A stretch of DNA of 64,000 nt from Octopus vulgaris (Eukaryota), in the NCBI GenBank assembly GCA_951406725.2, contig OX597835.1:36704001-36768000 (forward strand). Reading direction: 5' to 3'. The notes under the pieces are model-generated. The model did not search any database and was not told the DNA's origin. It saw only the letters and a list, made by a program, of their open reading frames with translations. This document shows positions 60,345 through 60,751 of the stretch, one piece after another. Within the stretch, counting starts at the first letter, position 1. Every line of letters begins with the position of its first letter. The translations under genes were made by a program, and so were the position numbers.

Positions 60345-60751
60345 ATAATCTCTTTATAGAGACTTAGTAATTTTAATATTTCTATTATTGAAAACAAGTG
60401 GATGTATTCCACTGAAACTAGGTAAATATAAGCCTTCGAACAGAGACGTCAGTGGCGACACCTGCGGGTCTGACTGCGCTACATTGACAAGGGGCAATAC
60501 CCTGAAACGCGTCTGTAGCTGTCGGACTGGCAGTGTGAAGCGGCTGACCTCCCTTGTTCGAAGGTTATAATGGATACAGATCGTGTATCAATAGCTATCT
60601 TGATGGCAGTGGCCTCATAGAGCTGACCATGGCAGCGATTATTCTTATATCTATAAGAATGCCATATTAATATGGCGATAACAATTAATTTCCAGTAAAC
60701 GCTGCCATAATCTCTTTTATAGAGACTTAGTAATTTTAATATTTCTATTAT
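60345..60751 (+). mobile_element. Retrozyme-like non-coding unit: 362-nt period, ~44-nt terminal direct repeat, central hammerhead
   Basis: ataatctct(t)ttatagagacttagtaattttaatatttctattat at 60345-60388 and 60707-60751; extensive internal self-complementarity. Confidence 0.7.
60478..60519 (+). ncRNA. Type I hammerhead ribozyme, U3-A8 core variant
   Basis: gctaca TTGACAA gggg caata ccct GAAA cgcg T C tgtagc; perfect 6-bp stem I, 4-bp stem II, palindromic stem III ACGCGT, GUC site. Confidence 0.88.

Follow-up and report, generated by a model that had tools for sequence, protein, structure and literature searches.

A hammerhead retrozyme copy in a TA microsatellite of Octopus vulgaris with the insertion footprint of a PLE, probably templated by an RNA circle

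How did a compact, highly structured island of non-coding DNA come to lie in an AT-rich part of the Octopus vulgaris genome? In the window examined here (a stretch of 64,000 nucleotides), positions 60345-60751 have a GC content of 0.45, against 0.13 and 0.16 in the flanks, and are bounded by a direct repeat. A sequence-only reading had recognized this GC-richer island and had proposed that it encodes a 362-nt circular ribozyme RNA, of the retrozyme or viroid-like kind, in which a U3-A8 hammerhead caps a long rod. In the reading that we favor, the locus holds a single arm, 407 nt long, of a non-LTR retrozyme; the RT-endonuclease of a Penelope-like element (PLE) likely inserted it into a TA microsatellite, probably from an RNA circle produced by self-cutting and religation. 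Unit positions (u) are numbered from u1 = 60345, which places the predicted cut after u169 = 60513. The features of the locus are as follows.

60345-60751, plus strand: whole insertion of 407 nt (1.12 units; family unit 362-363 nt), a single 5'-truncated arm whose 3' end is site A
60345-60388, plus strand: partial second turn, the 5' copy of the 44-nt redundancy, with its 5' end inside a family-wide stop hot spot at unit positions 1-12
60433-60564, plus strand: interrupted rod that prolongs stem I of the hammerhead and ends in a perfect closing helix of 10 bp, with compensatory changes between subfamilies
60433-60442 and 60555-60564, plus strand: the two arms of the helix that closes the rod
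60478-60519, plus strand: type I hammerhead with stem I GCTACA/TGTAGC, the U3-A8 core TTGACAA, stem II and GAAA; cut predicted after GTC at 60513
60484-60490, plus strand: hammerhead core TTGACAA
60491-60503, plus strand: stem II
60503, plus strand: private C>T, which turns the first stem II pair from G-C into G-U and favors a shifted register
60504-60513, plus strand: GAAAC-GC-GTC, with the putative cleavage point
60507-60512, plus strand: ACGCGT, a palindrome replaced by ACATGT in another subfamily; two hammerheads are predicted to be needed for stem III
60573-60589, plus strand: side hairpin, with a double change from T-A to C-G in 11 of 28 aligned copies
60641-60676, plus strand: two adjoining hairpins directly upstream of start site B, with a double change from T-A to G-C in 11 of 28
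60689, plus strand: start site B (unit 345), the 3' end of 77 of 222 family arms, read through in this copy
60690-60751, plus strand: stretch of about 61 nt from site B to site A, the 'tail' of PLE-type insertions, including the 3' repeat copy 60707-60751 (tail concept as in PMC11167929 and PMC8557442)
60751, plus strand: site A, the 3' end of 126 of 222 family arms, 93 of them at exactly this base
60752-60767, no strand: (TA)n target microsatellite

All 20 arms of the helices named in the sequence-only reading lie where they had been placed, as do the U3-A8 hammerhead, its core and the closing helix. The direct repeat, proposed as about 44 nt with a period of 362, pairs 60345-60388 with 60707-60751 (44 and 45 nt, one indel, period 362-363). 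The longest ATG frame in the unit has 16 codons, and the unit is non-coding. The proposal of a retrozyme-type unit holds: this is a short non-coding repeat with a type I hammerhead, and tandem copies exist within its family.

The hammerhead itself had been called complete, which is true of the core but not of the helices around it, since stem III amounts to an A-U and a C-G pair round a loop of 2 nt, to which fold prediction gives a probability of 0.0 in the monomer, and stem II is altered at 60503. Across the family the core reads TTGANAA, with C, A or T at position 7 depending on the subfamily and the other core positions kept; the three intact types make up 98 of 127 pattern-captured motifs, and C3 occurs in one motif only. 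In PMC3088659 U3-A8 is reported as a known covariation that is active in vitro, and PMC4209133 places U3-A8 motifs in Schistosoma PLEs. Rfam gave no hammerhead call, either at gathering score on the whole window or at E<=10 on 60300-61520, and no other relevant family. The palindrome ACGCGT switches to ACATGT with both sides changed in 9 of 28 copies, and two palindromes are predicted to pair with each other at -8.9 or -6.0 kcal/mol. Since stem III is not predicted in the monomer and the palindromes are predicted to pair between two copies, cleavage is expected for dimers; the ribozyme would require a second hammerhead copy and form stem III between the two, so that family members are predicted to cut themselves after GUC as dimers only. 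Dimer cleavage through a palindrome is described in PMC4209133; among Xenopus retrozyme dimers, 8 of 9 failed to cleave in vitro (10.64898/2026.07.22.740005).

The copy at 60345-60751 differs from its relatives at one telling position. At 60503, C is found in 52 of 52 near copies, and the private T shifts the predicted stem II fold to 0.16 in register against 0.84 in the shifted register; the change likely represents decay after insertion. With one hammerhead and a private stem II change, this copy is a product and not a source, and it is probably dead as a source. The suggestion that the locus gives rise to a 362-nt circle is not supported, because a copy with a single hammerhead cannot release such a circle by itself.

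Is the structure a property of an RNA? The 362-nt unit has a minimum free energy of -134.9 kcal/mol in linear mode (z -9.2) and of -134.5 kcal/mol in circular mode (z -10.5) relative to 60 dinucleotide shuffles, so the circular fold that had been suggested as a check comes out strongly. The minus strand also folds (-120.4, z -8.6), and therefore the z-score alone does not give the strand; likewise the unit folded as DNA is significant (z -7.2), and energy alone cannot separate RNA from DNA structure. The polarity follows from 28 aligned copies, in which G-U cells outnumber A-C cells by 142 to 12 when pairs are read on the plus strand, which upholds the earlier claim of RNA-level structure with plus polarity. 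Of 90 pairs tested in this alignment, which excluded the 60629/60708 helix, 98.4% of cells are paired, compared with 31-43% in slid controls. Double changes fall in 9 of the 90 pairs (in stems I, II and III, the rod and two side hairpins) and in 71 cells versus 23 in shuffles, although relatedness inflates such cell counts and the subfamily changes represent few independent events; the number of double-change pairs is not beyond shuffles, 44 of 500 of which reach 9. Structure is conserved round the whole unit, beyond the vicinity of the start sites. As judged from these alignments, the RNA structure is real and kept by selection, and subfamilies appear to preserve pairing via compensatory changes.

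The element belongs to a dispersed non-coding family with well over a thousand scattered copies. In the genome (2.8 Gb, 227 contigs) a 23-mer from the repeat has 2,727 exact matches and its reversed control none; the first 100 matches fell in about 70 loci, from which we estimate about 2,000 loci. A 25-mer specific to the window's subfamily has 405 exact matches. When the best 40 of 2,206 candidates from a DNA search were scored, full copies proved 96-99% identical and lay on many contigs. The family unit is 362-365 nt long with a GC content of 0.42. At least two hammerheads in one arm occur in 14 arms in 132 loci, with up to 5 hammerheads, and one tandem locus (L033) comprises 5.5 units. The genome search of the unit that had been suggested thus recovers a dispersed family with some tandem arms, as anticipated, but not freely circularly permuted copies, their 3' ends being fixed at two points.

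Variation in the window's subfamily is mostly G>A and C>T, as in CpG decay of DNA, and shows no RNA-editing footprint (A>G 29, T>C 30). Among near-subfamily loci each of the four possible combinations of two diagnostic sites is present, and one tandem arm contains two haplotypes (L019); template switching between RNAs or recombination among copies may account for both. At two loci (L023, L200) different subfamilies are inserted side by side within one TA run, and such runs are therefore reused targets. In a search of sequence archives, the 20 entries listed with part of the stretch are of guessed or unknown type, and none is given as RNA. For four runs guessed to be RNA, assembled contigs span 26-29 of 30 bins, and one contig crosses a unit-to-unit junction of a diverged subfamily; a circle and a tandem transcript, or RNA and DNA, would yield such contigs alike, and they carry no weight in what follows.

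In order to describe the anatomy of insertions we used 132 loci, namely those of the first 100 matches of the 23-mer and of the 25-mer and nine further loci, in which 222 arms of at least 30 nt were counted after removal of exact duplicates. The anchor words lie directly upstream of u44 (site A), so loci with short B arms only are under-counted. In this sample two fixed points, separated by about 61 nt, account for the 3' ends of 203 of the 222 arms: site A (u37-53, with the peak of 93 at u44) and site B (u336-348, mode u345); the other 19 end elsewhere. The 5' ends are variable and cluster at u1-12 (22 vs 8.6 expected) and at u205-216 (26 vs 7.6), in both cases at hairpins. One A arm and one B arm on opposite strands are found at 57 loci and a lone A arm at 48. 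There are 74 junctions of 5' end to 5' end, 56 of them A+B, and 2 that are tail to tail (3' to 3'). Most A/B ends (158 of 207) adjoin (TA)4 or more, and at non-TA sites there are clear 8-13-bp duplications (for example at L013, L030, L150, L151, L160 and L166).

This anatomy also explains the repeat that first drew attention to the locus. The A arm stopped at u1-2 of its second turn, hence the apparent terminal repeat of 44 nt, which is the outcome of a fixed start and a variable 5' stop after 1.12 turns; its length depends on the point at which the 5' end happened to stop and is not a fixed feature. Because the repeat sequence is common to the family it is internal to the element and not a target duplication, in agreement with the sequence-only reading, which had also correctly put the ends of the insertion away from the cleavage site. 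At seven further loci with one arm (366-430 nt) the redundancy differs in length, and across the family the terminal redundancy is variable and not an LTR.

PLE insertions are described in PMC8557442 and PMC3846280 as 5'-truncated, partially tandem, accompanied by an inverted copy, optionally tailed and biased to (TA)n, and in PMC11167929 two internal RT start sites bound the tail and both strands are cut and extended. Judged by the genomic copies, the fixed ends, head-to-head arms and (TA)n targets of our family are a PLE footprint, and it is very likely that this retrozyme is moved by PLE machinery. The arms at one locus were likely primed independently. A fold-back origin of the inverted arm was considered and rejected: neither arm is contained in the other in 32 of 57 A+B pairs (with L044 counted twice), the lengths of A and B arms are uncorrelated (rho 0.14), and 5' ends lie within 10 nt of each other in only 5 of 74 junctions. 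As the arms are not nested and their lengths are uncorrelated, the second arm is not a fold-back copy. Nearest-neighbor distances between arms were discarded, the metric being biased by permissive alignments that crossed inversions.

Several other origins for the copies have to be weighed against this one. The 44-nt repeat could be taken for a target-site duplication round a DNA-level palindromic, MITE-like insert, since it is as AT-rich as the flanks; that reading is refuted by the occurrence of the repeat sequence in thousands of copies at unrelated sites, by the excess of G-U over A-C and by the variable 5' truncation. The unit might also be the pseudo-LTR of an autonomous PLE not yet found, of which the copies would be 5'-truncated ends. 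Their ends, tail, inversions and TA targets are indeed those of PLE ends, and the U3-A8 core is shared with a PLE of the same genome, but upstream of every arm longer than one unit (55 of 203) lies the unit again. Matches to PLE proteins were found at 5 of 132 loci, never as the 5' continuation of an arm (at L046 the PLE fragment adjoins rearranged 3' ends), so copies joined to a PLE ORF, which would have told against a retrozyme, are not found in this sample; none of 50 GIY-YIG loci uses the unit as its repeat, the single match (L116) being a separate insertion. We regard the pseudo-LTR origin as very improbable and largely refuted. Viroids and satellite RNAs with hammerheads in both polarities replicate from RNA to RNA, and an infectious circular RNA of this sort could have been reverse-transcribed into the genome as a passenger. 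Size, a highly paired rod-like fold, compensatory evolution and coexisting haplotypes in all combinations of two sites are features that the octopus element has in common with such RNAs; its hammerhead core is on the plus strand only, none being found when the minus strand of the unit was searched, there is no ATG frame above 16 codons and no Rfam match, and the element is a genomic retroposon, dispersed, with tandem source loci and with variation of the kind left by DNA decay. An infectious origin is therefore very improbable, and the label 'viroid-like' goes too far.

The remaining question concerns the template, and here the weighing is closer. A linear monomer cut at both ends would limit A arms to 238 nt and B arms to 176 nt, yet most arms long enough to reach the cleavage site continue beyond it (57 of 62 A arms, 45 of 52 B arms; 13 cross it twice) and 55 of 203 A/B arms exceed one unit, as had been predicted from copying for more than one turn. 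Cut linear monomers are therefore excluded as the main template, although stops at u169-180 slightly exceed expectation (12 vs 6.2, p 0.024, uncorrected over 31 bins), which hints at cut linear RNAs among the templates. Arms of one insertion agree in subfamily in 26 of 27 pairs, against 0.29 expected; two indel haplotypes agree between strands at 30 of 30 and 30 of 30 loci (expected 0.54 and 0.51), and the turns of tandem arms share them in 22 of 23 and 24 of 24 arms. The 11 short-word discordances in the arm comparison included chance matches outside the element. Locus-private variants are common to two arms in 8 cases and to turns of one arm in 3, with 106 and 87 unshared and a chance expectation of roughly less than one each by a rough estimate. 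These comparisons indicate one template type per insertion. Read-through and concordance are most simply accounted for by a circle, but they also fit an uncut, homogeneous linear multimer. Haplotypes could agree simply if no more than one is active at any given time, and conversion between inverted arms could give both the same private variant. The same element and enzyme could thus work from a largely uncut linear multimer, with a hammerhead that is slow or trims ends and with no circle in transposition. Tandem sources exist, stem III is weak, stops are in mild excess just 3' of the cut site, one arm mixes haplotypes, and PAc uses uncut RNA as its substrate for insertion (PMC11167929). On the other side stand the near-constant haplotype of tandem turns, the smooth decay of arm 5' ends round the unit without any fixed 5' limit, the conservation of structure round the whole unit, and the accumulation of related coral, mussel and axolotl units as circles (PMC7229834); a circular template for PLE tandems is also proposed in PMC4209133. 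We consider the linear multimer a possible but rather unlikely template, and a circle as the main template reasonably probable.

Which enzyme might be responsible? A GIY-YIG search gave 6,136 candidates; among 150 scored, many have an intact frame of 781 aa, and 50 loci were read. The 781-aa frame contains RVT_1 (just below the curated cut-off), GIY-YIG and a CX4CXXC linker, which PMC8557442 ties to the Neptune/Nematis clades and tentatively to (TA)n targeting. The pLTR of this PLE has a minimal hammerhead, TTGATAA...GAAACATGT, with 1,448 exact matches, and its insertions show two ends 38 nt apart in (TA)n, one locus (L137) being an inverted A+B pair. The U3-A8 core and the ACATGT palindrome are common to this pLTR and to one retrozyme subfamily. 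When the 362-nt unit was aligned with the pLTRs of two PLE families, the 59300 element and the 313-nt neighbor, scores stayed within those of local shuffles. In the absence of alignable homology between unit and pLTR, the 781-aa PLE is a plausible mobilizing partner and not an established one. A second PLE family is also young, with arms that are 100% identical at L140. A 42-nt, 74% match of the tail to PLE loci L140 and L143 (E 0.25) runs antisense to the ORF and was set aside as chance. An RT and GIY-YIG ORF between pLTRs, the mark of an autonomous PLE, is lacking in the retrozyme family. At L131, a member of a young PLE family, frames 268-1704 (479 aa, no Pfam match) and 1626-3968 (781 aa, RT and EN) overlap, and the 3' region carries tandem repeats of about 90 nt rich in TGACGTC and ATTGG words. 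To our knowledge two frames are unusual among endonuclease-bearing PLEs.

The window contains other insertions of related kinds. Adjoining the 407-nt copy, 60874-61494 is a second, older retrozyme-like insertion whose unit measures about 313-340 nt; its arms meet head to head, its two ends are separated by 34 nt, and its core is again TTGACAA, with the palindrome ACATCGATGT; it has 2,324 candidates, of which the best copies are 75-85% identical, it is not alignable with the 362-nt unit, and it weakly resembles PLE family B at the latter's 3' end (2 and 7 of 200 shuffles). Positions 61924-62227 hold a 3' fragment of the 781-aa PLE family, with a pLTR that has a U3-A8 minimal hammerhead and a 38-nt tail and ends in (TA)n. 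A 5'-truncated PLE of the L140 family lies at 54082-56627 (94% protein identity, RT and GIY-YIG, interrupted frame, 3' repeat present). The inverted arms at 59300-59719, one with an extra tail of 56 nt, recur at 25790-26021 and 30620-30781, and these look like truncated ends of a further PLE-type family.

Set beside known systems, the family is by its sequence features a non-LTR retrozyme variant with a clear PLE footprint and, probably, a circular RNA. It resembles metazoan non-LTR retrozymes (PMC7229834; 10.64898/2026.07.22.740005) in a unit of 150-450 nt (350-390 in mussel) with GC below 50%, in a type I hammerhead, present here in all subfamilies, that sits free at the tip of a self-paired RNA, and in tandem copies, target duplications of more than 4 bp (8-13 bp here at non-TA sites), the presence of PLEs in the genome and the lack of an LTR. 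Tandem copies with at least two hammerheads are a property of the family and not of the copy at 60345-60751. It differs in its U3-A8 core, in a stem I extended into a 130-nt rod, and in copies that are mostly dispersed, shorter than two units, often made of two head-to-head arms, and fixed at two 3' ends; the two-arm anatomy is absent from the available descriptions in both sources. With endonuclease-bearing PLEs (PMC8557442, PMC3846280, PMC11167929) it shares 5' truncation, partial tandems and an inverted 5' copy, as well as two internal RT start sites with a hammerhead upstream of them and, between them, a 3' tail that is not always present; targets that are AT-rich or (TA)n and duplications of 8-13 bp are further common points. 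Unlike them it has no ORF, its tail is about 61 nt rather than 30-40 nt, and its hammerhead has a canonical 6-bp stem I and a 4-bp stem II instead of the minimal form.

The minimal hammerheads of Schistosoma Cercyon PLEs and natural U3-A8 hammerheads (PMC4209133 and PMC3088659) likewise replace C3-G8 by U3-A8 and have a palindromic 15.2-16.2 region that implies dimer cleavage, but there the motif sits in PLE repeats or other settings, whereas in octopus it belongs to a short non-autonomous tandem unit and covaries at the level of subfamilies. The double hammerheads of amphibian satellite-2 (HHR_Amex1, PMC7229834) are similar in a very weak palindromic helix III and in cleavage expected mainly as dimers, and differ as long tandem arrays with a canonical core. 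Retrozymes with two start sites and paired arms, or with a U3-A8 core, did not come up among the papers listed in a literature search; Repbase, supplements and most subscription journals, which lay outside it, may describe the family. Titles and abstracts on octopus and hammerhead ribozymes included none on such elements, and the matches listed for retrozymes in cephalopods included no occurrence.

The course of events that we favor would start at roughly 1 in 10 loci, those with at least two hammerheads in one arm, which are presumably transcribed. Paired through the palindrome, two hammerheads are predicted to form stem III and to cleave after GUC; a host ligase, by analogy with other animals, would close the unit-length RNA set free in this way. 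In the monomeric circle the ribozyme would be off, because stem III cannot form there. A PLE protein, a candidate suggested by the footprint, would nick (TA)n on both strands, and from each nick cDNA synthesis would begin inside the unit, at site A on one strand and, about 61 nt further upstream, at site B on the other. The cDNAs run a variable distance, usually past the cleavage site and often for more than one turn, and their 5' ends join head to head or join the target; at 60345-60751 there is an A arm alone, which stopped 44 nt into the second turn.

These results bear on how animal retrozymes re-enter the genome and on why PLE insertions are tandem, inverted and tailed. Mobilization of retrozymes by PLEs is a hypothesis of PMC7229834, and its earlier support, as presented in the accessible parts of that source, PMC4209133 and 10.64898/2026.07.22.740005, is co-occurrence and, in the last of these, pLTR kinship, and not the anatomy of insertions. 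Here a single genome offers start sites known to the base, a short template that codes for no protein and candidate enzymes that are still intact, so that the choice between circle and linear template becomes testable in vitro with the assay of PMC11167929. As U3-A8 cores are missed by Rfam, families of this kind are probably under-counted. More tentatively, and as a reading rather less likely than not, we suggest that a dimeric PLE enzyme may copy one covalently closed 362-nt RNA from both nicked strands simultaneously, beginning at two defined positions and continuing round the circle, that the palindromic U3-A8 hammerhead could act as a copy-number switch, on in multimers and off in the monomeric circle, and that the shared core might mark the retrozyme as an offspring or mimic of the 781-aa PLE. 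If this is true, thousands of copies in the octopus genome would preserve, as fossils, single moments of reverse transcription that was twin-primed and ran round a circle.
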